From Rhizaria sp. SCN 62-66 (Eukaryota): a DNA stretch of 35,803 nt. The DNA is taken from the NCBI GenBank assembly GCA_001724265.1, contig MEDY01000314.1, positions 1 through 35,803 of the forward strand. The letters are read 5' to 3'. The position numbers and the translations under genes were made by a program. A model generated the notes under the pieces. That model saw only the letters and a list, made by a program, of their open reading frames with translations. It was not told the DNA's origin and did no database searches. This document shows positions 9,838 through 35,803 of the stretch, one piece after another (position 1 is the first letter of the stretch; each line of letters starts with the position of its first letter).

Positions 9838-10568
9838 ATGGCAGACCACCCTGGCGCAGATCACCGTGAGCTCGCTGACAATGGTCGTATCTGCGACCTC
9901 CATGTCGCGCTCGCTGAGTTCATGGCTCTGACGACTTAGAGGGACTCTTTTGAACGTCTCTAGGCACGATGATCCGGCTTGACGACGAAAGGTTTCCTGG
10001 CAATGCCGCGCACTTTCGTGTAATGGCTGCAAATCGCCGTCTTGGGACTGATCTTCATACGTGTTTCGTGCCAGCGGACCAGTGTACGGCGGCATGATTG
10101 TCATTCGTCACGCTGTACCATGGGCGCGAGAACGCAAAGCTGTCCTGTGCCACGCAGCCTTTGTTGCTTCCGCGCAGCGACGTTGTCTGCGGCGAGTACA
10201 CAGAGCCGACGGACACGGACGAGACCGCGTCGTATCCCGCTGGCACTGTGCTTATGTATGCCGATAGCGTTGCCGCAGATCGGGATCTTGACAGCAGGTA
10301 TTGCGGCCTCCCGTGGTTCATCGTCTTCAAGTTGTGCCCCACAAGCCTGCTACGCGGCACCGTGCCCGTGGGCCGCGTGGTATCATGCGTGGCGGATGAC
10401 GAGCCTTCGGACGACGAACCTTCGGACGATGACAACATGGACAGGCCCTTTGACGCCGCGATGCTGCAGTGCTTTGAGACGCGCTGCGGGACCAAGGAGT
10501 GCAGTGTTGGCGCCCGCGTGGCGCCGCGTGGCGGCGCTGTCCGCTGAGTACCGACGGCTAAGGCATAA
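9838..10568 (+). pseudogene. Probable decayed gene fragment of unknown family
   Basis: Intermediate-GC, protein-like reading MIRLDDERFPG...CTAA*LSFVTLYHG...GAVR*VPTAKA* with in-frame TGAs at 10095 and 10545. The upstream piece from ATG 9838 is in another frame and contains TAG/TGA. Includes a 15-nt duplication (DDEPS x2). Confidence 0.45.
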
Positions 10569-10735
10569 GCGATAACCTTGCCTTCCAATGTGACAATGAA
10601 AATCTGACATTTACTATCACATGATAATATGAACCAACTAATGTGTTGGTCTTGTATTTTGTACCAATAAAACGTCTTCAGTCAGTGATTCAAGTTATAT
10701 ATCGTAATTCTAGTTAACCAGGGTGTGTCTTCTCT

Positions 10736-13570
10736 TCACCACATCGCACTGCCTTTCATTGCCACTCCCGCGCCCTGGAGCCGCATGGCCGCGAGCATCT
10801 GTGGCAGCGAGAGCTGCGTCACCGCGCGCTCTTTGTTCGTGTCCATCAGCCGGAACACCGCCTTGCTCTTACTCTTGCTCCTGCTTTTGTGCTGGCTCTG
10901 GCTGCGGCTCATGCCAGCGCCGCTGCCGCTGCCACCGCTGAAGACGTCGCCGTCGGCCTCGCAGTCGGGCGCGGGCAGCGGCGCGGTGCCCACGGCCGCA
11001 GAGACGTCGGACGACACGGCCGCGCCCCACAGCCCCAACAGCACGCCCTCTGCAGTCGCGCTCGCGCTCGCGGTCGCGGTCGAGCTGCTGCGACCGGCGC
11101 TGTGAGCAGCTGGTACGAGGGGGAGTCCGGACCAGAGCTGGCACAGCGTCTCAGCGGCCGCAGCCACCGCGTCTGCGGTGACGCCGGCAGTAGCAGCTGC
11201 GCCCACTGTAGCAGCGGGCTGCAGCATAGCCGTGGCCGCGGCCGCGACGGCCGCGCTGCGGGGCGGCGCCGCGGCCCACGCCACGAGCCCCCCCGCGGCC
11301 TCGGCGGCGGCGTCCAGCCCCGCCTCGGCCCAGACGCGCGCGCCCAGCCAGGCCGCGAAGGCCGTCAGCAGACACAGAGGCGCGCTCGCGAGAGCTGCGC
11401 TCGCGGCGGCCGGCGCGGCGGCGGCCGGCGCGGCGGCGGCGGGGGGGTGTGAAGCGCTTTGGGGCTGCTTCTGCAAGAACATCGCCAGCATGCCCCTCTG
11501 CTGCAGCTGTTGCTGCTGCTGAGGCTTCGCCGCCGCTGCTGCTGCCGCCGCCGTCGTCGCCGCCTCCGCAGCGGCAGCTGCTGCAGCGCCGGTGGCCGCG
11601 GCGGCGAGTGTAACTGCAAGCGCGGCGAGCCACGCGTTCCGTAGCTCCGTGACGGCGACGAGCTTGATGGGCAGCAGCGTGCGCAGCTCCCAGCTCCGCC
11701 CCGGCCGCTGCAGCAACTGCCACGGCCGCGCCGGCAGCGGCGGCGGCGACGGCGACGGCAACGAGGACAGCCCTGAGTCGTCAGTAGAGTCACTACCGCC
11801 ACTGCCACTGCCACTGCGATGACACTGCGACTACGACTGGGAGAGCTCTTGCTGCTGAAGCTTTGGCCTTGGCTTCGGCGACTGCGCCTGTGGCCGGGGC
11901 ACCCGAGCGGTGACCGAGAGCGGACGCGTCGCCCGGTCGCAGTCGGCGAAGGACGTGAAGGCCAGCCAGAACGGGCTCCGGCGCAGCGCCTGCGCGCACT
12001 GCGCCCGCGACGGGGAGCCCTCGTGCGAGCGCAGATGCGAGCGCTGCTGCTGGCGCTGCTGCTGGTGCAGGAGCAAGGCTGACACCGGCGCAGCAGTCGT
12101 CGCGTCGCCCGCGTGCATCTCGCCGTCAGCATCGGCGTCAGCGTCAGCGTTGGCGTAGGCGTCGTCACTCATGCCAGAAGCAGCCGAGCGCTTGCTGCTT
12201 GCAACCTTCGAGTTCTGAGTAAAATACGACAGAAACATGGCTGATTGACTCGTTTTGCCCTTGTTGTCACTGTTCGCGCCGCCAACAGCGCTAAACATCG
12301 CGCCGTCGCCGGCATTATTGCTCTCGCTCGTTGTTACCAACGCTGAAGACGTTGATGCCGCCGCCGCAGCGGTCGCCGCAGCGTCGTCGTCCGTCGCGAG
12401 GCGCGCAAACAGGTCGTCGTCGATGGAGCCGCAGTCGCTGTGTTCGCAGTCGCTGCCGCCGGCGCTGCCGTCGTCGCCGTCGCCGTGGCCGTCGTCGTCG
12501 TCGTCGCTGTGCTGCGGCGGCTCGCGGTCGCAGCCGTCGCCGTGGCGGCAGCGGCGGCGGCGGCGGCGGGCGTGCGCAGCAAAGGCAGCAACGGCGGCGC
12601 CGGCAGCAGCCGCAGCGGCTGTTGCGGCAGCCGTCGCTGTCGCTGGCTGTGATTGTAAGTGTGATTGTAAGTGTGAGTGCGACTGCGGGTGCAAATGTAA
12701 GGGTGCGTGTAAGGGCGTCCGCAGCGCGCGAGACAGCGCCGCGGGCTCGGGCGTATACACAAGAGAGCCCTTGGTCACGACCGCTGGGAGTTGATGCTGC
12801 TGGTATGAATCGTTCTCGCTCGCACTCGAAGTCGCAGTCGCAGAGAAGTTAGCACTCGCGCTAGCACTCGCGCTGAATCTAGTACTCAGTGACTGCTGCT
12901 GCAGTAAATGTTGCGGTTGGAAAGGAGAAGAGGGGATGGCGAACGGCGAGTGTGTCTGCGACTGTGAGCGCGATAGCGAGCGCGTGTGCGACAGAGACGT
13001 CGACAACAGAAGTGACTGCGGCTGCAGCCCCTCCTTAGCATCAGCATCGTCCTCGTCGTCCTCCCGCATACTCACTGGCCGAGACATGGCGCCACCAGCG
13101 GCCGCAACTGCACCCGCGGCGGCCGCAGTGCTCGCGTAGGAGGAGGAGGCGGAGGCGGAGGCCGTGGCGGAGTGCGCGAGCGCGGCCGCAAGCGCTGCCC
13201 ACGACTGCTGCGCGCACGCACGGGGCCAGACCAGCGCGTCCAGCGCCGACACCGCACGCGACAGCGCCGCGGGGGATGACAAATGCGCTGCAACGGCTGC
13301 AGCAGCGGCAGACGCAAGAGCGACGACCGGCGAGGCGGATACAGTGGGGGTTGCGAGGGCAGACGCTGCAGCGAAGGCGGCGGCGGCGAGGTCGCTCTGC
13401 CAGGCGGAGACGGCTGCTGGAAGCGACAGCGCGGCGGGGGCAGCGGGGCCAAAAGGAAGTGCCGGTGATAGCTCAGCGCTGGTACGCTTGGAGCGTGTTG
13501 CGGACTGTGGCGTGCGGCCGGAGGCGCGGAACTGAGAGGGCTCGGCGCCCGCAGCGGGGCCGAACTGCAT
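10736..13570 (-). CDS. Hypothetical protein, ~944 aa, single exon, with an in-frame TAG at 11833-11831
   Basis: ORFs 11831..13594 and 10736..11761 share a frame and are separated only by one TAG (ELSQS*SQCHRSGSGSGG). There is no AT-rich spacer or intron signal between them. ATG at 13570; TGA at 10738-10736. Confidence 0.75.
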
Positions 13571-16530: not shown

Positions 16531-17148
16531 GTCAGTCATCAGCTCGGAAAGAAAAGCGAGGGCTAATGGAGAGGCGCTGCGCTGTGAGTCAATTCGTTTG
16601 ACACAATCGAGCGATATGCGCAGTGTACTTGGGGCTGGAGGTCTGAATGATCCTTATTATCTGTTTCCTTTTGTTACGCGTGTGTTTTGTTTTTGTTTTA
16701 AGCAATTATACACATCAATCAAGTCAATATTCTAATTTTTTTTAGCTCAATAATCTCGTTCGTGATCGTAAATCGCGCGGCTTCACTTTTTTTTTCGGTC
16801 CTTGGTCCGCTCCGTCCGCTCCGTTCGTCCGTTGATGCCCATCGAGCGAGACGTTTGGAAGTGAATATGGCACCCAAGGCCGTCTTTGTTTGAAGTGTAA
16901 TTTTACGAGAATACTGCAATTGCTGTATATATTCGTGCCATACGAACTGCTTTTTATTTGACGACTCACCACCTGCGAACATTACGATTCTTTGCGTCCC
17001 ACAGCGGCTAGTACCCACCCCCGAGTCTGATCTCAAAGCAACCTCTGCCAAGAGCCCTGTCTCAGCTCTCCGCAGCTCTTTGGCCGTTGTCGTCACTCGG
17101 TCCTTGCTCCACTACCCTGCGGCTAGCCCTTTTCCTGCCACAGCCCTG

Positions 17149-17385
17149 ATGTTCTCTTTCGGCGCCAAGCCCGCCGCGCCCGCGGCTGCGCCCGCTGCCG
17201 GTGGCTTCAAGTTTGCGGCCGCGCCCACCGCCGCCGCCACTGCGCCCGCTGCCGCGCCTGCCGCCGGTGGCTTCTCTTTTGCCGCTAAGCCGGCCGCGGC
17301 CCCCGCAGCCGGCGGCTTCTCGTTCGCTGCCAAGCCCGCCGCGCCCGGCGCGGCCGGTGGCTTTTCCTTCGGTGCCAAGCCCGCT
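17149..17385 (+). repeat. Five degenerate FG-nucleoporin-type repeats (GGFSFAAKPAA)
   Basis: Units MFSFGAKP, GGFKFAAAP, GGFSFAAKP (x2) and GGFSFGAKP separated by Ala/Pro spacers. Confidence 0.85.
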
Positions 17386-18520
17386 ACTGGCCTCGCCGGC
17401 GCCGCCGTGCCCGCCGCGCCGGCCGTGGCCACCGCGGGCGTGCCGCTGCCCTCCGGCGCCATTCCCAGCGCGACGCTGCACAACCCCGCGGCCAGTGACC
17501 CGCTGATCGACCGTATTAACGCCATCTCTCGCGCGCTCGACCTCGCCTCCTCGCACTGCCGCCTGCAGACGGTGCTCTACAACAAGACCAACCCGGCGTT
17601 CCTGTCGCAGGTCGTCAAGCCGCCGCACGCGGACGCCGCCGTGTGGGCGCGCGGCGTGGCCGCGAACCCGGACCCGACGACGCTGGCGCCCTGTCTCGTG
17701 GTGGGCTTCCCCGACCTCGAGCGCAGGCTCGGAGAGCACCACAAGGCCGTCCAGTACGTTCCGCACGAATTATAACGCGTTGAGGATCCATGTTATTTAC
17801 GTGGTATATATGTGTGTGTCTTTGTGTGGTATAACTATTTTAATCATAGAACAGGTCACCAACCTCAGCCTTCGTATAAGCCATCAGCCTCTGTCTTACT
17901 TTATTATTATTTTGTGACGAAACATGCATTGATGTGTTCTTTATCTCACGGTATCTTTTTACTTGATGTGCCTGCCCCTAACCTGTTATCTCTCTCTCTT
18001 GCTCAGGACTCACCTGGACGCGCTCGCGGCGACCGGCGAGCGCGTGGACGCGATGCGGCTGACGCAGCAGCGCCACGAGGCCGAGCTGGACCGCCTGCGC
18101 TCGACGGCGGCGGCGCTCTCGCAGCGCGTGCTGCGCGTCGCCAGCCAGGCCGACCTGCTGCGCGCGCGCGGCGTGCCGTTGGCGCCCACGGAGCTGGACC
18201 TGCTGGCCAAGCTCGAGCGCATTGACGCCGAAGTCTCGGGCCCCGGCTCGCGCCTGACCGCGCGCGTCGCCGACGCCAGCGCCCGCGTGGCCGCGACCCG
18301 CGACCGGACGGCCACCGACGCCGGCGGGGCCGCGGCGCAGGGCACGCTGGGTGGCGGCGAGCAGGCCGCGGCTGCCGCGGTGGTTGCCGGCGTAGCGGGC
18401 GCCGCGGGAGCCGCGCTGGAGACGCAGCGCCAGCTCGTCGAGGAGCTCGTGTGCGAGACGGCGCTGGTCAAGGCCGACGTGGCCGCCGCCGTGCGCGTGC
18501 TTGAGGCCGGCCGTCGCTGA
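17149..18520 (+). CDS. NUP54: Nucleoporin Nup54/Nup57-like; exons 17149-17753 and 18007-18520, ~372 aa
   Basis: N-terminal FxF(G/A) repeats, then CRLQTVLYN...KPPHADAAVWARGVAANPDPTTLAPCLVVGFPDLERR, then a coiled-coil region with LSQRVLRV...LRARGVPLAPTELDL. This is typical Nup54 architecture. Ends in TGA. Confidence 0.88.
17754..18006 (+). other. Spliceosomal intron (253 nt)
   Basis: GTACGT...tctctctcttgctCAG, phase 2 (CA|G), frame-preserving. Confidence 0.9.
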
Positions 18521-19013
18521 AGCGGCTGAACTACAACGCTTCATCATAACCCTGAGTCGGCAATCAACAATGAAAAGTGTGCCTGTGAATAGCAAAGAGC
18601 GCGAGCGAGCAGTGATCAGCAAGTGATGTTATCGACTGACTGACTGCAATTTGGTGTAAGCTTATCAAAACGCAGTGTGTGTGGTCTATAAGTATGTCAG
18701 CGGGCCAAAGTGTAATAACAAACGTCTCACAGGTATTGTGAGGTTTAATAAAATTAATGTTTTACATCGATCTTTAGATTGATAATTGTGTTGTATTGTT
18801 TTATTCTTTCGTTTACACCAAAGTTAGTAAGCGTGTGTGAAAGACACTCCGTTTTTAGTGGCGCGTATTTTGCTTGTTGATTACTATTTATACAAACGCT
18901 CTTGCGCTATTACGCTCAAATACATTGTACATGAAACTTTACATGGACACCTACTAGTCAAATACTACTGCTATATTTAACATCGGCAATACTGTCAAAT
19001 GTGTGCGTTTTGC

Positions 19014-19802
19014 TTAGAACACGGTGGCAAAGACGCCCTTATGTCCCTCGACAGGAGCGCCGCTGCTGCCGCTGCCGCTCCCGCCGGCGTTTCCGCCGCT
19101 GCCGCTGTCGGCGTCGTCGTCGTCCGAGTCGGCAGGCGGCTCCTCCTCGTGCGCGGGTCGGTAATAGAGACTCGCGTTCTGCGTCGCCTGCTCGAACTCA
19201 AGCCGCTCCTGGGGAAGGGCAGAAAATAAGAATTGCAAAGGAAACGAAGCACAGTGAGCATTATATAAAAAGATTCTGAACATACGTCAAATGTGACTCA
19301 ACAGACAAATGGTCTTGGTTCGAACACCAACCCAACGACATCAAATTGCTTTGCGACTCCGTGTGTCAGTCAATAAATCCATCAAAACAGCAAGAGTGCC
19401 AGTGATAGCGATGTGTCGAGTACGTACCTGGCGCTTCTTGGTCTCGTCCGCAACGTCGGCGTAAAGGTTATCGAAGATGAGCCGCCGCACGTTCTCGTCC
19501 TGGACGTCGGTGGCGCGGGTCTGCGCGGCCGAGAGCTGCTCCTTGACGCCGGCGTCGAGGTCGTAAAGCGCCATCTGCTCCATCTGTTGCAGCGCCGTCA
19601 GAGCGTCCGTCTCGACGCCGCGCATGAGCGTGGAAGCCTTGGCCGCGGCGAGCGCGGCCTCGGCCTCGGCGGCCGTCACGCGCTTGAGCACCGACTCGTG
19701 CAGCACGCGGGCCTCGCGCGCGATGTGCGTCTGCTGGCGGTCCAGCGACGTCGCCGTCGCGGACGCGGGCGCCGACGAGGAAACGGAGGACGGGGACGAC
19801 AT
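19014..19802 (-). CDS. Hypothetical helical/coiled-coil protein; exons 19802-19428 and 19208-19014, ~189 aa
   Basis: Two GC-rich blocks joined in frame by a canonical intron (ETKKRQ|ERLEFEQ). Ends in TAA. No family recognised. Confidence 0.8.
19209..19427 (-). other. Spliceosomal intron (219 nt)
   Basis: GTACGT...ttctgcccttccCAG on the minus strand, phase 0. Confidence 0.88.
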
Positions 19803-20745
19803 GGGGGCGGTCAGAGGATTATCGAGTGCGATAACTCGGGGCTGTGACAACGGTGGATACGGGCGGGACCGACTGGGAGCTGTTTGCTGTGGGTCGAAAC
19901 GACAAAGTGCAGCGCAGGACGGTGAAAGCACAGCGAGGTGTAGTAAGGTCCTGGTAAAGCCTATCAGGTCTAATACGCTGTGGCGGGGCGGGGTAACTTC
20001 AGATATTGGATGTGGAGCGCCGGACGGATGCGAAGGAAAGGTGGGGTGAAGCGAAGAACAGTGAGAGAATGATATAGCAGCGAGCGCACAGAAGAGTCAC
20101 ATGAGGGTTTCAAGACGTAGAAATTTGACTATGAAAGAAAATAATAGGTATATGTGTGGTAGTGGTCTCCTGTTTGAAATTGACGCTCGCAAGTGCCGTA
20201 GTCTATCCGTGTTGAAAGGAGGCTGGGTACTGGGCCAAAGCAACCATGGTGACCGTGGGATGGTGGGCTACAGTGGTCGAAGAGCTTCGGTTGGCGTGGG
20301 AGTCCGATCTGCGGGTAGTTGCCACGATGCAGTGTGACCGACAGCTGCAATTTAATAGTGTCAGCGAACTATATCCTTTTTTCTTAAACTGCATACTCTT
20401 TTTATCATTTCTAAAGCTTTCTTTGGCCTCCGCCAACTGCACTTGCCGATACCCCGCTCACACTTGATCTATCCCCAACTCATTCCCTCCACTCCCCGCC
20501 GTGCTGCGCGCCACCATCGCATTACTTCACAATATTTCTTCCGCTCCCTCTACAGCGCACTTTAAGACACGCGGCTTGCACTGTCTTGTCGCGCATCAGC
20601 TTCTCTACACTCGCATCACTCTCTTCCCCGCTCGCGCCCGCCCTCGCGTCCCTCAGGCCAGCACTCCGCGGCGCAGCGCGTTGCGTCTATCGCGGCCCCC
20701 AGCGCTGCCCGCGCCTACCCCTCCCGGCCCGTCCGCCGCTGGCCC
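19803..20745. promoter_or_regulatory. Divergent intergenic region and 5' UTRs
   Basis: Spacer with an AT-rich core between start codons at 19802 (-) and 20746 (+). Confidence 0.35.
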
Positions 20746-23700
20746 ATGCAGAGCTCTCTTGTGCGCCGCTTCGCCGCGCGTGCCGGCGCCCATACACCCG
20801 CGCCCGCGCTCCGGCCCTCGCAAGCGACGACAGCAACAGCTTCTAGTGGCGCTAACCACCCCTGCTCGCTGCCTCAGCGCGCAGCCTCGTCGTCCTCAGA
20901 GTTCTAGTCCCAGCAGCGGCAGCAAGGCAGGCCTCCGCGGTCGGTGAACCGGCAGGCGCAGGCAGTCGCCGAAGCCCGCCGCCATGACCGCGCCATCAGC
21001 AAGGGCCCCGGCCGCGGCCACGGCCACGGTCATGACAACAGCCACGGCCATGGCCACGGCCACAGCGTCCACGCGCGCGCGCACGCTCACAGCCCTTTTC
21101 CGGGCCCGGCCGCGCATGCGCACGCGCACGCGCACGCGTCCCGCGGCGGCAGCAGCGGCGGCGGCGGCGCGAGCAGTTCCGCTCTGAGCAGCTCTGCTCT
21201 GAGCAGCTCCGCCCTGGGCGGCTCCTCGCTGGGCAGCGCGCAGAAACGCGTTACCGCGTCTGCCGCCGCCGCCGCCGCCAAAGAGGCGGACCCGGAGGCC
21301 GCGGCCGAGGCCGCCGCCTAGGCCGCCGCCGTGCCGCGCTTCATGTACCCACTGCCACTACTGTCACCGCCAGCGGCCGCAATCGCTCTCCGCGCACGCG
21401 GTCCCCACGGCCGCCGCAGCACCGCCGGCGACGCCGAGGCCGAGGCTAACGTCGGCGAGAACCATGGCCAGAATGAGGGTGATGGTGGGGATGACGTGGT
21501 CGCCATGCTGGGCGCGGACGCCGGCGGTGATGTCGCGGCCTGGCGCCTCCGCGCCGCCGCCGCGCTCGTCGCAGCAGTCTCCCGCACCCGCGTTGCGCTC
21601 GCCCTCGCCCGCGCGTCGGTTCCTGGGGCCGCCGGCGCGGCTGACGCCTCTGGCAGCAACGGCACCGACGGCGGCAACGGCGCCGGGCCGCAGGTCAGCG
21701 CGGCGGACGTGGGTTCCGCGGCCGCGGCGGTGCCGTTCATCCGGGACCTGGCTATGCAGACGATGCTGTTGCTGCCCCCCGCGCTCGACGCCGCCCCTCG
21801 CGTGAACCCCAACGCTTACAGCGACAGCGACGCCGCGGGCGCGCACACCGACGCCGACGCCAACGCCAGCGCCAGCGACTGCTCGAGTGCCCTCCACAGC
21901 GACAGCGACGGCCGCGCGGCGTCGCCGGCCGCGGTGTCGGTGTCGCCGGCCGCGGCGGCGCGGTGGGCCGTGGCGCACGGCGCGGGCGGGCTGCGTGCGC
22001 CCTACGTTGCGCTGGGCTACGAGGACGCGCTGGCGCCCGCCTCGGCCGACGCCGCACTAGCCGTGGTGCGCGGCCCGCTCGAGGCGCTGCCGGAGGTGCT
22101 TGCGCTCGGCCAGCTACCCGTCGCGCGTAAGGGCGTCCTGGACGCCAGCGCCAGGGAGGACGGCCGGGGGAAGGGCAAGAACAAGGGCAAGGGCAAGGGT
22201 AAGAAGTCCGACGCTGACGCAGACGCCGACGCTGACGCTGACGTTCCTGAGGCTGCTGAGGCTGCGACTGCTGCCGAGACTTCCGTTGCGCCTGTTCCGC
22301 CGCCTGCTGTCACCACGCTGGGCGGGTGCGGCAGCGCCGTCGTCTCCGTCGCTGCGGCCGCCGCCGCCGCCGCCGAGGCCGTGGCCGCGCGCGCGGGCGT
22401 GCTGCTGTCGACCTCGGCCAGCCCTCTTGCCGCCGCTGCGCTCGCAACGCTGCCGCTGCTCGACCCCGTCGCCGCCACCGCCGCCGCCACCGCCTCCTCA
22501 ACCGCCGCCGCTGCCGCCGCCTCGACCGCTGCCGCCGCCGGTGCAGGCGAGACCGACTCTGAGCAATCGACCGCGGCTGCGGCCGCGGCTGCGGCTGCGG
22601 CCTCGGTGTCGGTGTCGGTGTCGGTGTCGCCGGCCATGGCTGCGCTGGCGCTGGCCGACCCCTACGGTCGGCTCGTGCTCTCGGTCACGCACACGGACGC
22701 CACGGAGGCGCCCCGCACCGTACCCCTGCCCGCCACGCCCGCCGCCGACGCCGCCGCCGCCGCCGCACACTCGGCGACGGCGACGCCGCCGCCGCCGGCG
22801 GTATCGGTGGCCGGGGCCGTGGCCGCGGCCGACGCGGTGCTGGGTCACGCGGCGGTGCGCGATGTGCCGCTGTCCTCCGCGCTCGCGGCGGCCTACTTCG
22901 TGCTCGCCAACCCGCCGGTAAGTACCCCCTTAGAGGACGACGGCCCCTCCAGCACCAGCACCACCACTACCACTAGCAGCGGCAGGAGCAGCAGCAGCGG
23001 CGGGTCTGTGAGCGTGATGGACACAGCCGCGCACTCAGAGGCCGACGTCGCGGCCACTCTCGTCGCCGTGCTCACCACTCCCCTCGCTCACAACACGGGC
23101 GACGGCGCTGGCGCGGGCGCGCGCGCGATGATGATGACGCCCGCTGAGGCCGCCGCGAGCGCGCGCGCGGCCCTGCGCGCGCTGTCTGCCGCGCGCGCGG
23201 CGGGCCGCATGGCCGCGGCGACGGCGGCGCTGGCGCGTGTCGTGCGCCGCGTCTACGCGCTGCCGGCGCGCAACGCGCTGGGCAACCTGGCCTCGCTGCA
23301 GACGGGCGCGGGCGAGGCCGCCGCGGCCGCCGCCACGACCGTGTTCGCCAGCTTTCACGCCGAGGCCGAGGCGCTGGCCGCCGCGGGCCGCCTCGTCGCC
23401 GCCGCCGCGCAACGCGAGCTGCAGTTCTACCCCAGCCAGAGCCACGGCGCAGATGCTGCCAGCACGGGCAGCAGCAGCGCCAGCGCCAGCAGCGCCGAGA
23501 CCGCCGCGCGCGCCGAGACGGAGCAGGCGCTGGCGACGCTGACGCTGCAACTGGGCGCCGTGCTGCCCGACTGGGCCTCGCAGGCGGCGCTGGCGCGCGC
23601 GACTGCGCCCGCGGGGCCCTGGGCCGGCCGCCACGCCTTCGCGGCCTTCGCGGACCGGCCCTGGACGGCGACCGAGTCCGCGGTCAAGTTCGCCACTGAG

Positions 23701-25344
23701 GCCGCCGCGGCCGCCGCCTCGAGCGCCGCCACGGCCGCCGCGACCGCAGCCGGCAATGCGCCCGGGCTCGGCCGAAGCGGCTTCTCCGCGGCCGCCTCGA
23801 TGGCCGGCAACGCGGCCGCCACCGCCGTGCGCGCCGCGGCCTCAGTGGCGCTGGCCTCGGCCGAGGCCGGCCGCAAGCGATCGCCGGGACAGCTCTCCGC
23901 CCACCCTGTGTTCCCCGCCCCTAACAGCAACAGCAACAAAAACGACACCAAAGCCAAGAACAAGACCGATAACAAGAACACTGGCGCCGCCAGCGCCAGC
24001 GCCGGCACAGGCGCCGAGGCCGACGCCGAGGCCATCGCCGTCGCCACGGCCGCCGCCGCCGCGGCCGCCGCCCCCATGATCGCGGGCCTCGGTGCGCCGG
24101 TGTGGCACTCGCTGCTGTCGCCGTTCCCCGCGTGCTACTCGCTCGAGACGCGCGCGATCCTCGCCGCGGGCCCGCCCTCGCCCGCGCTCTACGCCGCCGC
24201 CGCGCGCGCGCTCGTGTCGCGCCGCACGGCCGCCGCGCGCGCCGCCGCGCTGTCGGCGCCGCGGCCGCTCGCCACGGCCGGGCTTGAGTCCGTCGCGGCC
24301 GAGGCCGACGCCGTGGGCGTGCGCGAGCTCGTCGACTACGCGGCGCCGCTTCTTGGCGCGGCGCATACCAGGGAGGCCATCGTTGCCGCCGTCGTCGCAG
24401 ACAGGCAGCAGCAGCAGCAGCAGCAGCAGCGCCAAGACGATGTGACCGACGGAGCTGACACTGTTCCGGCCTCTTCTCCGGCAACTACTGCTGAGGTGGA
24501 CGTCGAGTCCGGCGTCTCGATGAACGACAATATCATGCTCTGCGCGGGCTACGCTGCGTACGCTGCGGAGCACCGCGCGCTGAGCGACGCCGGAAATAAC
24601 GGCTCCGACGCGAACGAGGCCACGAGCTACGACGGCGCGGTCTACTCCAACGTGGTCCCCCTCAGCACCGCCCACAGCCTCATCAACAGCCACGGGCTCG
24701 GTCTCGGTCAGACGGGCCGCCGCCGCCGCCTCGGTGCCGACGCCCCCTCGCTGGCGGCGGCGGCGGCGGCGGCGGCGACCTTCGCCGAGGCCGCGCCGGT
24801 GCTGACATTCAATGAGTGGCTGCAGCGCGCGCTGCCTCCGCGCGCGCGCCCGCTGCCGCCCGCGCGCCGCGTCGCCGCTGGGCTGCTGTCATGGCCCGTC
24901 GCCGACGGGCTCGCGGGTGCGCTTGTGGCCATGGCCGCGGCGCCCGCCCTCTCGGCGGCCCCCAGCGGGGGCGCGCGCGCGCTGGGCTTTGGCGCGACCG
25001 TGCTGGGCGAGGGCGCCGAGGACGAGAGCACGGCCTCGGCCCTCTTCTTCCCTTTCACCGACCTGCACGCGCGGCGCCTCGGCGCGCGGGCTGAGCCCGT
25101 GACGGCGGTGCCCGCGCTCAGGGCGCTTGTGTCGACGCGCGCACTCTCCTGGGCAGACTGGGTCGCCGAGCACGCGGCGCAGGTACGACACTTCGCCGGG
25201 ATACATCACACTCGGAAATGAAACCATCGTGACTGTTATTTGATATCGTTGTTATTCGTGCTTGTTAATGATTCCTTTTCTATTTTGAACAATGTCTCAC
25301 GACTCTCCACACCTTGCTTTCTTTCTTTCTCACTTGGTTTCGAT

Positions 25345-25380
<36 letters not shown>

Positions 25381-28300
25381 AGGTGCGCCGTTTTGATCAG
25401 CTGGACAAGGAGCTCCGCGAGCTTCACAGCCGCGCCGCCGCGCAGCTGCCCCGCGGCTCCCCGCACGCCGCCGCGCTCGCCACGGCCCGCCAGGCCATCC
25501 CGGCCCTCGCCGCCGCAGTCTCGCTCCTCCGCCCCGACGCCGCCGGCACCGCCGAGGCGTCAGTGCATGCGGCGCTGTCCCGGTCGCATGCGAACAACAG
25601 CGGCAACGGCGTTGACGTCGAAGTGGCGATCCTGAACTACGACGGCAACGGCGCCGCCGCCGGCTCTGGCGCCGCCGCGGGCAGCGCGTCGGAGCTGGCG
25701 CGTCGCCCCGAGCACGTGCTGGGCGCGCTGGGCGTAGCCATCGGCCCCGAGGCGGAGGCCGCGGCCGTTTTCGCGGACGCCGTCGCCCTTCGCGCGCACA
25801 GCGCCGCCCTCGATGCCAACGCCAACACGGCAAGTGCGGTGTCCGCCAGCAGCATGCCGCTGCTGGCGGACGACCCCTGGCAGCTGCCCGCTCGCCGCCG
25901 CCGCGCCGCCGCCGCCGCGCCCCTGCTTAACGCCTCGGGCTACATGATTTTCCGCGCGGGCACGCGCTTCGCCGCGCCGCTGCCCAGCGCCGCGCAGAGC
26001 GGGCTCAGCTACAGCCACACCGTGCCCAACGCAGGCGGCGACGCGGAGCCCGTGGAGGTGTACACCGCGGTCCCGGGTGCGCTGTCGTCGCTGGCGGCCT
26101 TCCCCGCGCGCTCCGTGGCCGTGGACCCGCGCCGCGTGCTCGTCGGCTTCGACGGTGTGGTCGCGGCCCCCCACACCGGGCTCGTCCCCGCGCTGCCGCC
26201 GCTCGCCGCCGCCCCGCCCGCGCCGGCCCCAGCGCACGCCCACGCGCGTACGGCGCTCTCGCGCTCGCTCGCGGACGGCAACGGCGCCACCAACAGCAGC
26301 GCCGCGCGCGCCGGCGGCGGCGGCTTTGACGCGCTGCTGCCGCCCGCGCTGCTGGCCGCCGCGGCGCCGCTGCCCGGCTACGCACTCGATAGCGCCAGCG
26401 CCGCCGCCGTCGCCGCCGCGCACGCCGTGCTGCCCGCGACGGCGACGAGCAGCGCGGGCCACAGCCACGCCTTCGGCCCGGCCGTGGCTGCGCTCGTCGC
26501 CGACGCCGTGCGCCTCCCGCGCCTCGCCGCCACGCTCGCGCCCGACTACCGGCGCGAGGACGCCGCCGCCGCGGCAGTCGCGGCCGCCGTCGCCACTGCC
26601 GCCGCCAGCGCCGCCAGCGCCGCGCGCAGGGTCGCCGCCACCTCTGGCGATGGCGGCGGCAGCGAGCAAGACAAGGCCGACGCCGCGGCCGCTGCGGCGG
26701 TCAACGCGGCCGCCGCGGCCGCCCTGCTCGAGGCCCTCACGCCCTCCGCGTCTTCCGCCTTGGACGCGAACGCCAGGGCCGACGCCAGCGCCAGCGCCAG
26801 CGCCAACACTGCACTGGGCGCTCTGAGCGCAGCGCGCGGCGACGTGGGGCGCATGACGCGCTCCGAGCGCGAGCACTTCCTACTCGAGTGCGCCACGCGC
26901 CTGCCGCCGCAGCAGCTCGAGGCGCTGCTGGACGTGCTGTCGGGCGCCGACCCGCGCGAGCGCGGCGCTGCGCAAACGCTGCAGGACGCCGTGCTGGGCA
27001 TGCCGCCTATCTACGCCAAGGCTAGCCGCCGCCGCAAGCGCAAGCGCCTGTCCACGGCCGCGGCCGCGCCGTGCACCGCGCCGGGCGAGCAGGAGTACCT
27101 GCAGCAGCAGCTGCAGGCGAAACTCGACCAGCAGCAGCTGCAGCAGGAAGTGGCTGAGCGACAGCGAAAGCGTGAGCACGATAGGAATGCGGCTGGCGCC
27201 GCCGGCAGCGGCAGCATAGGCATCAGCAGCAGCAGCATCACCTCGCTGGCCAGCCCGGCCGCGATGGTGGCCGCGCGCATCGCGCAGGTGCCGCCCGCGC
27301 CGCTCTCAGTCCCTGAGCCTGCGGACGCGGCCGCGGCGGAGCTGCGTGCGGCGCTGGCGCAGCGGCCGCTGTGGGCGCGCGGCGGCGAGCAGGCGCTCGA
27401 CCTGGCCATCTCGCGCCGCGTGCTGCGCGAACGCTGGGCCGCCAACAACGCCGTCAAGCTCTACGGCAGCGACAGGGCCAAGGACGGCAAGCTCGCCAAG
27501 AACAAGGCGAAGGGCATCGCCGACGCCAGCGCTGCCAGTGCTGAAAGCGCGGAGAGCGCTGTCCCGATGGCTGCCCCGGCGGCGGGCGCGGGCGTGGTGT
27601 GGCCCGAGGCCGACCTCGACATCGAGCTCGTCCCCGCCGCGACCGTGAGCTCGACCACGAGCGCAACCGTCAGCGCGACTGTTAGCGCGAGCGCGCACGT
27701 CCACCACGTCGACCACGTGGACCACAGCGACCTCTCCGCGGCCGAGGCGATCGCTCTCGACGCCGACGCCGATGTTGAAGCTGACGCTGACGCTGACGCA
27801 GACGATGACGCTCCTGACACAGACCGTGCCGCCGAAAGCAGCAGCAGCAACAACAGCAGCAGCAGCGGCGGGGGCGACAGCGGCTTGAACGACCTGGCTG
27901 CTGTCACGGCGGCCGCCGTGACGGCGTCGCTGCGCGGCCGCCCCTCGCAGATCGTCGCCAGCCCGCGCAAGAGCACAGGCAGCACAGGCAGGTCCGTGGG
28001 CGGCGTCAGCGGCGTGGGCGGCGTGGGCGGCGCGACCGGCGCCCGGCGCTCGGTGCTGCCGCCTCTGCCGCCGCTGCAGCGCCTGCGCGCGGCCCTGGAG
28101 CCGCCGCTGCTGCCGCTGTCGGCCTCCGGCGCGCCCGCGGCGCGGTCCGTCTCGCTCGAGGCGGCCGCGCTCGAGGCGAGTCTGCTCGTGGCGCACGCGC
28201 GGCCGTGCTACCTGACGCTGGGCGAGCGCGTGTCGGTGCGCCTCGTCGCGCTGTTGCGCGCGGAGGAGTGGTACCGTGCGCTGTCGACGCTCGCACAGGC

Positions 28301-31199
28301 CCGCCGCGAGGGCGTCATACTGTGCCGGTTCGTCTACAGCGTCATGGTCGCCAAATTCGCGCTCTTCGGCCGCCTCGAGTTCGTCTCGGCGACGGCGCAG
28401 GCCATGCTCGCCGACGGACTCGCCGACGCCGACGCGATCGTCACCTGGGTGTGCATGGCCTCGCGCGTCGCCGCGGGCCACACCGGCGGCCCCGCGATCG
28501 AGGAGTTGGACACGGCGCTGGACGCACTGCTGGACCTGGAGCCGCCGATGTCGGCCGCGCGCACGCGCCACGTCGCCGCGCAGCTGCGCGCGCACGGCCA
28601 CTACCAGCGCGCGCTGGGCACGGCGCTCTGCATGGCCGACCTCTCCGAGGGGCTCAACGGCGAGGGCGGCGTCGCGGCCGAGGTGCTCCCACTGCTGCGC
28701 TCGATGGTGGACGACGACGGCGCCGTGTCGACCTGGGAGGCGCTTCAGGCCTTCGCGGACCACCCCGCGCTGGACGACATCGTGGCCGCCTTCGTCGACG
28801 CCGCCAGTGCCACGGGCCGCGGCGCCGCGCAGCTCCACGCGCTTTTCGCAGCGCACCCCGGCGCGCTCCCGGCCTCCGAGGCTGCGGCGGCGCAGCAGGT
28901 AGCAGCAGCCGCTCAGGCCCAACAACAGGCGTTCGCCAAGGCCAACGCTGGCGCTGGCGCTGAGGGCGCGGACGACGGCGTGGACGCGGACGCGGTTCTG
29001 GGGCGGTACGCTGAGGTGCCCGACATGTGGTGCGCGCTGCTGCGCACGCTCGCGCGCACGGCCGCGGCCGCGGTGTGGGACGCCGGCGCCTCTGTGAGCG
29101 ACGACCTGGTTGGCGGCGCGGGCCCGGTCGGCGCGCTATCCGCGGCCGGCGGCGGCATGCGGGGGCTGGGCGTGGTGGCGACGCGCGAGGGCGTGACCAG
29201 CGTGGCGCCGCCGCGCGGCACGCACCTCACCTCCGCGGGCCGCCTCGTCTGGCCCTCGGACGCCGAGGCCGCCGACGAAGCCGACGCTGCCGAGGGCGGT
29301 GAGGGCAGTGAGGGCCAGCACGGCGCCGGCGCCGGCGGCGACAGCAGCAGCAGCGGTGGACCGGGCCTCAAAGCGCAGCAGGTGGTCTTCAGCCCGCCGG
29401 TGCGCGCGTCTGTGCGCGCCGCCGTGCCGCCCGACGTGCTGGCCGCGTTGACCGACTGCCTAGCGCGGCTGCGCACCGCGGGCGCCACGGTCGCCGACCC
29501 GCTGCTCTTCTACCACCTCTCGCTGCTCTTCGGCGCGCCGGCCGTGTTCGACACGGCGCCCGTCGCGGCGTGGCTGCGCGCGCCCCAGACGCAGGCCGCC
29601 ATCGCCGCCAGCACTGCCGGCTCGCGCGCCGCGGCCCGCGAGCTGCGCACGGCGCCCGACCCGGCCGCGCACTCGCGCCTCGCGCGCCTGCTCGCGCTCT
29701 CGCGCGCGGCGCCGCACGCGCCGCTGGGCAGTCCCGCTGACCAGCTGCCTTTCGCGGCGCTCGAGGCCGCGCTCCGGCGCGGCGAGCCGCTCGCTGAGGC
29801 CGCGCTGCAGCCGCCGCTCGAGGCGCGCGTGTCGCAGCCCTTCGCCGACGCCGTGTCGGCCGCCGACGCGCGGCTGGCGCTCATGCCGCGGCCCGACGAC
29901 GACGTCGTGGCGGCCTTCGTGGCCGCGAACCCCTTCTTCGCGGGGCAGGACCCCGAGCGCGTGCGCCGTTACGTCGCGCGGCTGGCGGCGGGACACTTCT
30001 ACACCGTGCGCGGGGAGCCTGCGCCGTGGCTCTTCGGCGTCGTCGGCATGGGCGACGTCGCCGCAGCGCCCAGCCAGCTCTATCTCGCCGTCGCCGCCGC
30101 GGTCGACGTCGCCGACGGAGCCGCCAGCGCCAGCGCCAGCGCCGCGGCCTCGGCCGCCTACCTCGCAGTGGCCTCCGGCGAGGACACGGACAACTTTGCG
30201 GCTGCCGTTGATGCTAGCGCTGCGCCCGGGTCCGTGCTCGCCGCAGTGGCGGTCTCGGTCCCCCTGGAGGGCGCGGCGGCGCTGTGCGGCTTCACGCGCT
30301 TTGTAAACCTGCTCGACGAGGCCACCGTGCTGCCCGCCGCGCTCTACCACCAGCTGCTTTCGATCGCCGCCGCCTCGGCCGCCACGGGCGGCAACAGCGC
30401 GGCCGCGATCGTGGCCGCGACCTCGCCCGGCGCGAACTCGACGGCCTCTGCCGCAGCCTCGAGCGCCGCCGCCGCCGCCGCCGCGCTGCCGCTCGCGCTG
30501 CACGTGTTGGACCTGTTGTGGACACACCGCCTGCGGCCGTCGCCGCCGCTGCTTGACGCGCTGATGCGCGTGCTGCTGGGCGCGCGGCGCTTTGCCGCGG
30601 CGGCGCAGCTGGTGCGCGCCGCGCTGGAGCTGCAGACGGCGCTGCTGCCCAGCACGCTGCGCTTTGTCTTCCTCGTCTACGAGGCCGTCGTCTCACGCGA
30701 ACTGCTGCGCGCCGCGGCGGGCGGCGCGGTCGGGCCGTCGCGGTCCCTGTGGGACGTTGACGCGGAGCTGGCCGAGCTGCTCACGGCCGTGGCCAACTAC
30801 GCGCATATCTGCAACACGGACCGCCGGAGCAGCGTGACGCGCCGGCGCCTGGCCGCGCACACGGCCGCGCAGACGGCGGCGCAGCAGGAGCGCTCCATGG
30901 CGCAGCACAAGATGCGCAAGCAAGCGCATGCCAAGCTCGCGCAGGGCGAGGGCTACGGCGCTGTGTACGCGGCCAGGGCCCGGCGCAGGGAGGCTGAGGC
31001 CTACACGCCCGACTTCTCCCAGACGCAGCCGCAGGCCGAGGCGCAGGCGACGGCCACTGTGCCCAAGTTCATGAAGCCCGTGGTCGTGGCCGCGGCAGCG
31101 ATGAGCGTCCCGGTCGGTCAGAACGCGAGTGAGAGTCTGGAGCAGAGTCAGAGTGTCTACGACTTTCACAACGGCGGCGACCAGGAGGACGATGAATAA
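20746..31199 (+). CDS. Very large Ala-rich protein with degenerate PPR-like motifs, probably mitochondrial; exons 20746-25182 and 25380-31199, ~3,418 aa; two in-frame TAGs (20905, 21319)
   Basis: One frame runs from ATG 20746 (MQSSLVRRFAARAGAH..., presequence-like) through two TAGs into ORF 21331..25221, then a phase-0 intron leads into ORF 25314..31199. PPR-like segments: ALSTLAQARREGVILCRFVYSVMVAKFALFGRLEFVSATAQAMLADG and ALHVLDLLWTHRLRPSPPLLDALMRVLLGARRFAAAAQLV. Ends in TAA. An alternative start at ATG 21343 applies if TAG is a stop. Confidence 0.7.
21172..21216 (+). repeat. Three tandem 15-nt repeats encoding SSSAL
   Basis: agcagttccgctctg / agcagctctgctctg / agcagctccgccctg. All differences between copies are synonymous third-position changes in the main frame. 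Confidence 0.85.
25183..25379 (+). other. Spliceosomal intron (197 nt)
   Basis: GTACGA...(CA)16-G ending in CAG; AT-rich; phase 0 (HAAQ|EVRRF). Confidence 0.85.
25347..25378 (+). repeat. (CA)16 microsatellite
   Basis: Perfect 32-nt CA repeat directly visible. Confidence 0.97.
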
Positions 31200-31493: not shown

Positions 31494-34400
31494 TCATTCG
31501 GACCCGTGCCTCTTGGTTGCAGGCCCATACTGCTGCTGCTGTTGCGAGTGCTGCTGCGAGGGCAACGGCGACCGCACCCGATAGCCTCCTGCAGCCCTCG
31601 CACTGGCCAGGGGACCAGCGCCACTGCCGCGCCGCTGTTGCTGGTACTGCTGCAGCATCTGTTGCTGGAGCTGCTTCTGGAGCTGTTGTTGCCCCACGGC
31701 AAGCGCGAGCTGCTCCTGCCGCAGCTGCTCGCTGCGCTGGTGGTCCTGCCGGTCGGCCAGGTAGCCCTGCAGTGCGCGCAGCTTGAGGTCCAGGTTCAGC
31801 CGCGCGGCGAGCGGCGCGGGGGGCTCCGCCGCGGCCGCCACCGCGCGCACGACGTCGTTCGCGCCGCTCAGCTCCAGGGCGCGCGCGCGCAGCAGCGCCG
31901 CCTCCCACCGGCCCGAGCCGCGCGCAGTGCTCGCCCGCGCGCGCGCACTGGCAGCGGCACCGACAAGAGCTGTGGCGTCGTTGCTTTCGGCGTTCGCGTC
32001 AGCGCTGTAGGCAGCCGCCTCGGCCTCGGAGGCAGCCACGGCGCGAGCGCGCTGCGTCAACGGGCTGGGAGGCGGGCGCGCTGCCTGTTGCTGTCCCTGC
32101 ATCTGCTGCTGCTGTTGCTGCTTCTGTTGCTGCTGCAGGTGCAGATACAGGAACTGTGCGGAGACAGAGCCCGTGCCGTCGTCGTCATCGTCGTCATCCT
32201 CGTCTTCATCTTCCTCTTCCTCGTCGTAGAACAGCCCCTGTCCGTCGTCGCTCTTGCCCTTAGCGCCCTCGATTGCGACCGTGCCGGCGCCACGCGCCGC
32301 GCCCTGGCGCTTGAAGCGGCGCAGGTAGTCGTTGTCGCCGCCGCGCGCCAACCGCACGCGCCGCCGCGCGCGCCGCCGCACGATCTGCTGCTGTCGCCGC
32401 GCGTACTCGAGCTCGGCCTCCGCAGCCGCCTTGGCCTCCGCCGCAGCGGTCGCCGAGGTCGGGGTCAGAGGCGGACGAGGCTCAGTCTCACTATCATCGT
32501 CGTCGTCGTGGTCATCGACATTGGCGTTATCCTCGCCGTTGTCTTTGTTGATGATAGCCCGGGACTTGGCGATGCCGTTGTCGTCATCGCTTGTCGCGGC
32601 CTCTGCATCCATGTAGCAGTAGTCGCTCTCGCAAGCAGCGCCCTGTGACACCTGCGAGTGCGAGCCTGTGCCTGGAACTCTGACCGTGAGTGCGGCGGCG
32701 GCCTCAAACGCGCACGGGCACTCGCACTCGCACCCGGCGGCGCGCGCGCGCTCCCTCGCGCCAGCAGCGCCGGTGCTGGCGTTACTCGCGTCGGCTATGC
32801 CGCTCGCCTTGACCTGAGCCACGTCGGGCAGCGGGCAGCGTCGGCGCGCGCAGGCCGCGCAGGGGCAGACGCAGCGGCAGCGCGCGCGCGCGGCGCGGGC
32901 ACGGGCCTGCCGCGTGGCCACGCCGACTATGGCCAGCGCCGAGTCCGCGGCGGCGCCTTCGCGCCGCGCCGCCGCGCCCGCCTCGGCCCACAGCTCGAAG
33001 GCGCGCCGCCCGCCCGACAACCGGGCGGCCAGGAACGGCGCCGCGCTGCCGCCGCCGCAGCCCGTGGATGCCGCGGAGGACGCGAAGGACGACGATTGGC
33101 CGGTCTGTGCGGCGGCGAGCGCGGCCGCAGCGGCGGTGGAGGCGGCCGAGGCGGCCGAGGCGGCGGCGGCGGCGCGAGCGACGTCCTTGGCGAGCCTGGC
33201 GCGCGCGCGCTCGTCGCGGGCGTGGACGAGCGCAAGCGCCTCGGCGGCCGGCAGCGAGCGCGTGCCCGCCACGGCCCCGAAGGCGCCCAGCGGCACGCCC
33301 AGGTGCACGCTCGCGGGCGCCACGCCCGCGGCGCCGCGCGCCGAGAGCGGCGGGGAGGCGAAGGCCGCGGCGGGCGCGCGCAGCGCCGCGTCGGGGGCGA
33401 AGGAGCGCGTGAGGCGCGGCACCGGCGGCGCAGGCGCGTGGAAGACGTAGGGCTGCTCGGCGCAGTGCCAGGCGCCCACCGCGGAGCAGTCGGGGCAGCG
33501 CACGCCGGCCTTGTCCGCCTCGCGCGCCAGCGCCTCCTGTTAAGATGGGGGTGGTTCACAAAATTATATTCGGTGAGATAATATCATTAGCGCAATTTGA
33601 TAGATAAATAAATGTTAGAAGATGGAATACATCAATAGAAGAAAGAAATATACACAATTCACTCAAATGTGGCGTACCAGTGGCGTCATGTTGAGTGGGG
33701 TGCGCGCGCTGCCGACCTGTGCAGCGAAGGCGGTGAGGCCGAAGCCCCCGCTGAGCAGCCGCGCCAGCCGCGCCTCGTCCGCGCGCGTCGCGGGCAGGCC
33801 TACCGCCGCACGCCGCCCCGCGCCCGCGCCGGCGCCAGCCCCGGCGCTGGCCTTGCGCCCACGCCTGCCGCGGCCTTTGCCTCTGCCGCTGCGGCCGCCG
33901 CCCCCGCCGCCACCGTGCCCACGCACCTCGCCGCCCTCGTGGTCGTCGTCGTCGTCCTCGCTGCCGTCGTCGTCGCCGGCGCCGCCCCAGGCCGCGGTAA
34001 CGGGCGCCGCCGCGGCCGCCTCGCCCCGCGCCGCGGCGCCGGGACCCGTGGCGGCGGCGCGGGGGACGCCCGCCTCAACCCGCCGTGCCAGCAGGGCCTC
34101 GCGCACCAAGTTAGGCCGCGCGTGCAAGGACTCGGGCAGCGGCGGCAGCAGGCTGAGCGCGCGCGCGCCGCCGGAAATGCCCTCGTTGCTGAGCGCCTCT
34201 TTGACGGCGGCTGCGAGCGCGCCGAGGCGCCAGCCGCGGCCGCGCAGTCCGCCGCTGCCGCCGCCTCTGCCGCCGGCCTGGCTCTGGTCTTGCGCCTGGC
34301 CCTGCCCGTCGCCGCCCTCGCCGTCGCCGCCGTTGCCGTCCCCGTCGCCGCCATCCTCGCCGCTGCCGCCGTTGCTGTTGTTGCCAAAGCCTCTGCTGCC

Positions 34401-35803
34401 CTGCTGTTCGCCGTCAATGTCGTCGTCGTCGCCGTCGCCACCCGCGCCGCCGCCCGCCGCGGCCTCAGTCGTGGCGGCCGCCGCCTCTGCCGCGGCGACG
34501 GCCTCTCTGTATGCGCGCTCGCCCAGGCGCGCGCAGTCGGCCTCGGCCAGCGCAAGCGTCTGCGCCATGGCGCCCGCCAGCCAGCGCGCGAGCGGGCCGC
34601 GGAGCCCCAGCGCGCTGGGCGTCGCGCCCGCGCGGTACAGCGTGTCCAGCGCCGCGCCCGTCGACGGCGCGCGCGCCGCGCGGTGCAGCAGCGCCACAAC
34701 GCGGGCCAGCGCGCGCGCGGGCACACGCCGGAAGCAGCGCAGGCAGCTCACAGCGGGCGCGCGCGAGCGCGGCGACGGCGGTCGCAGCTGCAGCAGCACC
34801 GCGGACGCGGGCAGCGGCGCACCGTCGGCCGCCCCGGCGCCAGCGGCAACGCCCGAGCTGGAAGTAGCGGCAAGCTCAGTGGTGGAGTTCGCAGTGTTTG
34901 CAGAGCTGTTGCCGCTGCCTGCGCTGTGAGCGCTGCCGCCGCTGTCGCCGGGCGCGGCGGGCGGCGGTGCCGTGAGCAGCAGCGCCGCCAGCACCGCCGA
35001 CGCGCCCTTAACACCGCCGCCGCCGCCGGCAGCGCTGGCGGCGACGGCGTGCGCCCCCGGCCGCGTCACAGGCACCTCGCGCATCGCGCTCCGCAGCGCG
35101 GCGGCCTCGGCGGCGGCGGCGGCGGCGGCGGCAGCCTTGTCGGCGGCACGCGCGGCGGCCCTCGCGGCGGCGCGCGCGGCGGCCTTGGCCGACACAGGGC
35201 TCAGCGTGGGCTCTTGCTCTTGTGCCAACTCCGCCGCTGCTGCTGCCGCTGATGCCGCTGTTGCTGCTGTGGACTCTGTCGCGACCGAGGCGGCTGCGGG
35301 CGAGGGCGCGGGGAAAAAGAACACCCTCTTGCCCGCTCCAAAGCGTCTCTGGGCAGCGGCGCCCGCAGCCGTGACCGTGGGCGCACCTGTGGCAGCGGTG
35401 GCGGCGTTCGTCATGGTGGCCAGTCGGAAGCCTGAGGGTGACGCCAATTCTTGCTGCTGTTGCTGCTCAGAGCCATGCTGATGCTGCTGTTGGTGGTGCA
35501 GCGGTGACTGGGCGCGTGCTGTCCCCTGCGGCCTCCACTGCGGCCGCGACGGCGACTGCGCCTCCGACGGGGACTGCGTCGCCGAGCTCTGCTGCTGCTG
35601 CTGCGACGGCGGCTTGCGGGCGAGCGCGCCCCCGCTGCTCGCCGCGGCCGCTACAGCCGCCGCAGCCGCGCGCGGGGACGACCAGGGCGCCGCCGCGGCC
35701 GCCAGCGCCGCCACGGCCGCGGACACCGGCACCGGCACAGGCGCGGCGGCCGCGGCGGCGGCGGGCGACTGCGCCCGGTGCGGGTGCAGGTGCGCGTGCA
35801 GCA
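31494..35803 (-). CDS. Hypothetical low-complexity protein with Cys clusters, C-terminal part (5' end outside the window); exons >35803-33678 and 33536-31494
   Basis: ORFs 33663..35738 and 31494..33503 are joined in frame by an intron (NMTPL|EALAREAD). Contains poly-Q and acidic tracts plus CLRC, CPDC-x6-HC, CRCVCPCAAC and CECECPC motifs. Ends in TGA. Confidence 0.78.
33537..33677 (-). other. Spliceosomal intron (141 nt)
   Basis: GTACGC...ccccatcttaaCAG on the minus strand, AT-rich, phase 0. Confidence 0.88.

Follow-up and report, generated by a model that had tools for sequence, protein, structure and literature searches.

Probable use of UAG as a sense codon in a GC-rich nuclear contig, probably from a cercozoan

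Genes of the window and their source

The window, that is, the whole stretch of 35,803 nucleotides analysed here, is a GC-rich piece of eukaryotic DNA. It carries genes for MCCB, sphingosine-1-phosphate lyase (SPL) and Nup54, a p34-like gene and an EF-hand gene. Two further genes, a giant one on the plus strand and one of 944 codons on the minus strand, contain in-frame TAG codons, referred to below as TAG 1 to TAG 3. Eight introns were found in the window, with a GC content of 0.32-0.48. Their 5' splice sites are very uniform, GTACG in seven of the eight and GTGCG in the remaining one, and a contig from X5 skips from 19207 to 19427 with the intron spliced out. The window holds no tRNA genes, and Rfam gave no matches.

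The proteins of the window are swollen by alanine runs and dipeptide repeats (DA, NS, GH, AH, VS, SQ), and alanine makes up 24% of all residues. On the minus strand at 31494-35801, two open reading frames belong to a single gene, which exceeds 1,388 codons, has an intron near 33537-33677 and gave no Pfam match. The intergenic section 9790-10590 has a GC content of 58%, open reading frames on both strands and no match in Pfam or Rfam. The frame 10024-10575 was considered as a gene and rejected, its codon score of -4.66 being that of non-coding DNA.

Judging from one gene, MCCB, the window organism is probably a cercozoan. The best named eukaryote match of this protein carries taxid 136419, which is Cercozoa, with an identity of 78%. 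Closer matches are P0122 (93%) and P0124 (86%), whose contigs measure 11.9 kb and 214 kb. In a FastTree tree of 28 of the 120 MCCB matches the window sequence groups with P0122 and P0124 (support 97), and the cercozoan row lies in a sister group inside a clade of 16 rows (86). This row is the sole named eukaryote in the tree, and for this reason the cercozoan placement is called probable.

By their labels, the runs with matching contigs belong to bioreactor, wastewater, activated sludge and microbial fuel cell samples. A poly-A RNA contig of X7 differs from the Nup54 gene at 16 of 121 letters (17497-17617) and suggests that a related species is present in activated sludge. The X4 strain has a deletion of 57 nt within the Nup54 intron (17844-17900), and pieces from X4 and X5 show 6-nt gaps at about 19060-19125, in the repeat-rich last exon of a small minus-strand gene. 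In a metagenome scan with the SPL alignment none of the at least 80 loci listed exceeded 54% identity, and no relative was found among them; a viral collection gave no match to the TAG 2 motif or to MCCB. Two loci in prokaryote genomes were considered as stray contigs of the organism, and both were bacterial on inspection. P0123, considered as a stray eukaryote gene, is instead a bacterial-type sequence with a duplication.

The giant gene with TAG 1 and TAG 2

The candidate start of the giant plus-strand gene is ATG 20746, the first ATG after position 20327. The first-pass annotation had described an Arg/Ala/Ser-rich beginning free of acidic residues, and this description holds: the translated fragment 20746-20904 begins MQSSLVRRFAARAGAHTPAPALRPS, and Asp and Glu are absent from the first 50 residues. 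TAG 1 (20905-20907, codon 54) is located between SSSSEF and SQQRQQG. TAG 2 (21319-21321, codon 192) is located between EAAAEAAA and AAAVPRF and occupies the GAG slot of a 12-nt repeat, GAG-GCC-GCC-GCC. In translation both codons share the frame of ATG 20746 and of the open reading frame 21331-25221, as had been claimed. They are the only stops of the gene frame within 20746-21345, while the other two forward frames contain three and four. Past TAG 2, the gene frame first meets a stop at a TGA inside the intron.

Joining of the open reading frames gives exon 1 (20746-25182) and exon 2 (25380-31199), the latter ending at TAA, with 3,418 codons for both. The 197-nt intron between them (25183-25379, GTACG..AG, GC 0.43) was inferred from the sequence. 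What had been taken for a single 10-kb open reading frame is therefore two exons around this intron, and the frame of 1,296 residues named as the body of the gene begins at GTG and extends into it.

The stretch between the two TAGs (20908-21318) is of low complexity but coding-like. It had been considered translated because its repeats differ only at synonymous positions. The variation among the three SSSAL copies (21172-21216) is indeed synonymous only, and the HG repeat is found at 21016-21066. The codon score of the stretch is -3.47 per codon, as compared with a median of -3.46 for 61 windows of the same length from known coding sequence, and all eight non-coding controls fall below it (-4.7 to -5.5). 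Its GC3 is 0.85. This codon profile is that of real coding sequence. The first 53 codons (20746-20904) are less clear-cut, with a score of -3.90 that is 0.03 ahead of the next frame, a very small margin.

The next in-frame ATG, at 21343-21345, would be the start under the standard code. It is preceded by ATG 20746 and by four ATGs out of frame, and would rank sixth among the ATGs of the message. In the 200 nt upstream of it the share of G is 0.38, whereas seven other starts have 0.12-0.21. Upstream of ATG 20746 the GC content over 200 nt is 0.70, exceeding that of the seven other starts (0.40-0.58).

Independent sequences were compared from the assemblies of four of the 13 matching runs (X4, X5, X7 and X8), over positions 17000-21900, a stretch that does not include TAG 3. 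TAG 1 is spanned with no differences by X4 record 7 (20389-21099) and by X8 record 28 (20689-20949), from two studies distinct from the possible source runs. Since these copies are identical to the window, they point to fixation in the species and not to long-term conservation. TAG 2 is spanned by none of the 32 contig pieces listed (there are 551 further pieces), so that it stands without independent confirmation. RNA contigs over TAG 1 or TAG 2 are absent from the pieces listed.

The N-terminus may be a mitochondrial presequence. The suggestion of the first-pass annotation is plausible, with four Arg or Lys and no Asp or Glu in 30 residues and a helical moment of 0.58; the MCCB presequence reaches 0.65 and the start at ATG 21343 has 0.25. 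The helical-moment test is not specific, because the start of the non-mitochondrial SPL also reaches 0.59. The name "PPR-like" is a lead from structure comparison rather than a family assignment: Pfam gave no families in either exon, and no PPR family was found in two sub-segments at E<=10. Residues 900-1200 of exon 2 fall near PPR clusters in the ESM Atlas (0.93-0.95). A single-sequence AlphaFold (AF2) model of the plus-strand segment 28077-28979 is all-helical, with 14 helices and a low-confidence pLDDT of 54.7, and Foldseek places TPR and designed-PPR chains among its top rows, with a best E of 0.0035 and none at E<=0.001. The segment may be a PPR/TPR-like helical repeat, and that the whole protein is PPR-like and mitochondrial is no more than a fair guess. 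The Atlas clusters, the all-helical hairpin model and the presequence-like N-terminus resemble the helical-repeat proteins of the PPR/TPR kind. However, the protein differs from them in lacking a Pfam PPR and in its giant size of 3,418 residues, mostly Ala-rich sequence of low complexity.

TAG 3 and the use of stop codons in the window

The minus-strand gene (10736-13570) has 944 codons in translation, a TGA end and one internal TAG. This is TAG 3 (11831-11833, codon 580), located between QELSQS and SQCH in a TCG-CAG hexamer repeat. In both halves of the gene around TAG 3 the reading frame is the best of six and contains no TAA or TGA, as compared with 2-18 in each other frame. The gene is an orphan with no Pfam family. 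P0241 is its single homologue among 1.84 billion representatives (E 1.5e-22), the common motif being PARPW..RPGR.WELR. The conserved stretch (11126-11734, residues 613-815) lies downstream of TAG 3, and the alignment with P0241, residues 615-815, is wholly downstream as well. The motif starts at residue 613, and the first Met after TAG 3 is at residue 694, 81 codons later. None of the frames contains an ATG between these two points, where only near-cognate CTG and TTG codons occur. The motif behind TAG 3 is not preceded by an ATG and is therefore conserved protein sequence beyond the reach of a ribosome that uses the standard code.

It is important to compare the three TAGs with the true gene ends. 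Inside the ten gene models, about 9,260 codons in all, there are three TAG, no TAA and no TGA, the TAGs being found in two of the ten models, a small sample. All nine complete genes end with TAA (four) or TGA (five) and none with TAG. The probability of finding no TAG among nine ends is 0.03-0.13 if TAG is assumed to form 33-20% of stops. The GC content of the next 150 nt is 0.32-0.50 after the nine stops and 0.72-0.74 after the three TAGs, with no overlap (rank P 0.0045). Another in-frame TAA or TGA follows 2-47 codons past the true stops, while at least 300 codons stay open past each TAG.

When 1,336 stop triplets were scanned blindly for coding sequence on both sides (40 codons), TAG 2 was the only one to pass the strict rules. 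With relaxed rules TAG 1 passed as well, along with TAG 2 and six off-frame or antisense triplets, and TAG 3 was missed; in the flanks of TAG 3 (40-100 codons) the antisense frame scores equally well locally. All three TAGs sit in unalignable low-complexity segments, none at a conserved alignment column, and the conserved MCCB, SPL and Nup54 genes have no in-frame TAG. The searches gave no homologue spanning both sides of any TAG. For residues 1-460 of the giant protein there was none among the best 8,000 candidates (proteins of 30-812 residues), and among 240 SPL and MCCB relatives there was no usable case ending cleanly at a conserved column.

These data allow us to propose that UAG is a sense codon, and UAA and UGA are stops, in the nuclear code of the window organism, a proposal that we consider quite likely to be correct. 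Translation from ATG 20746 through both UAGs would then give one protein of about 3,418 residues, which may be imported into mitochondria, and the minus-strand gene read across its UAG would give one protein of 944 residues. The organism would be expected to have a tRNA carrying the anticodon CUA, for which the simplest origin is a mutation of tRNA-Gln(CUG) or tRNA-Leu(CAA), and an eRF1 that terminates poorly at UAG. A CUA tRNA and an altered eRF1 are the mechanism proposed for the rhizarian exLh and for Iotanema (PMC5304391). The claim of the first-pass annotation that both TAGs of the giant gene are decoded is thus supported, but mainly by evidence outside its own argument, namely TAG 3, the gene ends, the coding-like flanks and the motif behind TAG 11831.

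The main alternative is plain nonsense under the standard code; both genes would then have been truncated or have become pseudogenes recently, and ATG 21343 would now be the start of the giant gene. The first-pass annotation had considered two nonsense mutations of the same type unlikely. This argument is weak, since TAG is the commonest nonsense product here, reached by 72-74% of the possible single-base changes to a stop, so that three TAGs out of three are expected at P 0.37-0.40. In addition, all three TAGs are one step from abundant CAG or GAG codons in repeats, and the X4 and X8 copies of TAG 1 come from identical strains (no differences). However, this would mean three stops in two of ten neighbouring genes without a single TAA or TGA, and without any frameshift in repeats that are prone to slippage; the strain length differences listed in coding repeats are of 3 or 6 nt (g19 exon). 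Codon bias is unbroken on both sides of the TAGs, TAG occurs at none of the nine gene ends, and initiation would have to take place at a sixth ATG. We regard this alternative as improbable. An ambiguous or leaky UAG, a partial stop read by a suppressor or near-cognate tRNA in a code in transition or by context-dependent readthrough, is slightly less probable again. It would agree with the extreme rarity of in-frame TAG (three in about 9,260 codons) and with its absence from MCCB, SPL and Nup54, but other A/T-rich codons are equally rare in this GC3-rich genome (TTA 6, ATA 4, AGA 7, CGA 9), and with two leaky stops in a row in the 5' part of the giant gene the losses would multiply. There is no common 3' context and no stable 3' structure at the TAGs (z -0.34, +1.72, -1.59), and programmed readthrough by a 3' hairpin was rejected.

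Restorative RNA editing of the UAGs, by A-to-I change to UGG as in filamentous ascomycetes or by U-to-C change to CAG, appears very unlikely. We know of no nuclear restorative editing of this type in Rhizaria, which counts against it. None of the pieces listed is an RNA contig over a TAG that would contradict editing, and there is a precedent in Fusarium graminearum, with 71 pseudogenes restored by editing (PMC10776026), but two genes in ten seem far beyond this precedent, and editing alone leaves the absence of TAG from nine gene ends unexplained. It is even less likely that the TAGs lie inside introns that escaped recognition or in a 5' UTR rich in GC. TAG can serve as a 3' splice site, one intron of the window begins with GTGCG, and this pentamer is found at 20761 and 11999, so that an in-frame intron could take out TAG 1 alone, TAG 1 and TAG 2 together, or TAG 3. 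However, the introns needed would have a GC content of 0.68-0.75, the range of the listed candidates with a GTRCG start, as compared with 0.32-0.48 for all eight introns of the window, and they would have to hold in-frame codon bias and repeat variation that is only synonymous. No intron of the organism's type removes a TAG: the 81 candidates at TAG 1 and TAG 2 have a GC content of at least 0.62 and the 166 at TAG 3 of at least 0.58. The least likely explanation of all is an error of sequencing or assembly. TAG 2 and TAG 3 are unconfirmed and both lie within repeats, but TAG 1 is identical in two further studies, and three substitution errors all yielding an in-frame TAG are implausible.

The meaning of UAG and comparison with known codes

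If UAG is reassigned, glutamine is the most likely single meaning, with rather less than half of the weight in our estimate; about a third goes to leucine and about a fifth to Ser, Glu, Tyr, Trp or another residue. This estimate takes precedent into account: the rhizarian precedent is leucine, and the precedents for glutamine are more numerous. The reading of TAG as glutamine adopted in the first-pass annotation is not established, leucine being nearly as likely. A neighbour-context model trained on the window is unstable, giving Asn (0.34), Gln (0.40) or His (0.28) as the top residue depending on its width. The value for Gln is 0.40 at +-2 and 0.11 at +-3, and at +-1 Gln is outside the top ten; that for Leu is 0.04-0.09 (0.09 at +-2). 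TAG 3 fills a place in an SQ-SQ-SQ repeat and is one C-to-T change from CAG, which counts for glutamine. The repeat settings of TAG 2 (GAG) and TAG 3 (CAG) show, however, the mutational origin of the codons rather than their meaning.

Codon usage was also considered. The ratio of TAG to CAG is 3 to 287, or about 1%, while the analogous first-position variant TTG stands to CTG as 29 to 391 (7%). A free glutamine codon at the TTG:CTG ratio would therefore be expected about 20 times per 287 CAG, and not three times. TAG is as rare as TTA (6) and CTA (13), and the same scarcity is seen for ATA (4), AGA (7) and CGA (9). This would fit leucine or a disfavoured new codon.

UAA and UAG nearly always change their meaning jointly. 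The literature consulted lists few nuclear exceptions, one of them in Rhizaria, in an uncultured insect dweller for which there was no genome in 2017. In the literature searched, mainly non-subscription and without supplements, there is no report of a second nuclear UAG case in Rhizaria; the organism may already have an entry in the code tables of a supplement or database. If our reading is correct, a case of the rhizarian type recurs in samples from treatment plants and reactors, and its tRNA and eRF1 basis is directly testable: public DNA assemblies would allow the CUA tRNA and eRF1 to be read directly, neither of which could be had for exLh or Iotanema in 2017. It would also mean that a reassigned stop can be rare enough in a GC-rich genome to be easily missed. 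Gene callers that use the standard code truncate such genes, with the loss of their N-terminal targeting signals.

The only rhizarian case described in PMC5304391 is Rhizaria sp. exLh (Sainouroidea), with nuclear UAG for Leu and UAA and UGA as stops; in 71 genes there are 384 UAG codons, and the ends are 56 UAA and 15 UGA. The window organism, probably a cercozoan too, is similar in that all in-frame stops are UAG and the true ends are UAA or UGA only. However, exLh dwells in insects and uses UAG abundantly, while here UAG is very rare and the samples are of the bioreactor and wastewater type. The sainouroids Guttulinopsis and Rosculus have the standard code according to the same source, and for this reason kinship with exLh is not to be assumed. 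An independent change of UAG in a free-living cercozoan to a residue other than leucine (Gln, or one new for Rhizaria) is a possibility that we put forward only tentatively. The change would then be in its first stages, or its outcome still ambiguous, with UAG no longer found at gene ends but little used within genes.

In Iotanema spirale (Fornicata) nuclear UAG stands for Gln, with UAA and UGA as stops and UAG forming about 8% of glutamine codons (PMC5304391; PMC9161772). The reassignment of UAG only and its use as a minority codon are common to Iotanema and the window. However, Iotanema is an unrelated anaerobic lineage, while in the window the N-terminus of MCCB resembles a presequence, and the share of UAG among glutamine codons would be about 1% in the window if it means Gln. 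Among phyllopharyngean ciliates UAG is reported as Leu in TARA MAGs and as Gln in Hartmannula sinica and Trochilia petrani, and the same source gives UAG as Gln in Protocruzia tuzeti and as Ser in Scotinosphaera (PMC11687900). PMC10553269 and PMC9161772 agree with this account. All of these are independent changes of UAG only, with UAA still a stop, as in the window, but they belong to other supergroups. In recoded species UAG forms 6.5-31.8% of the codons of its amino acid and is found in 78-91% of genes (PMC11687900), as compared with two of ten genes here. The use of UAG in the window, one codon in about 3,000 against a background very rich in GC, is far under that of the known recoded species, and this counts against reassignment. 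We consider that the window probably represents a new case of a known rare kind of code, set apart from the others by its very low use of UAG.
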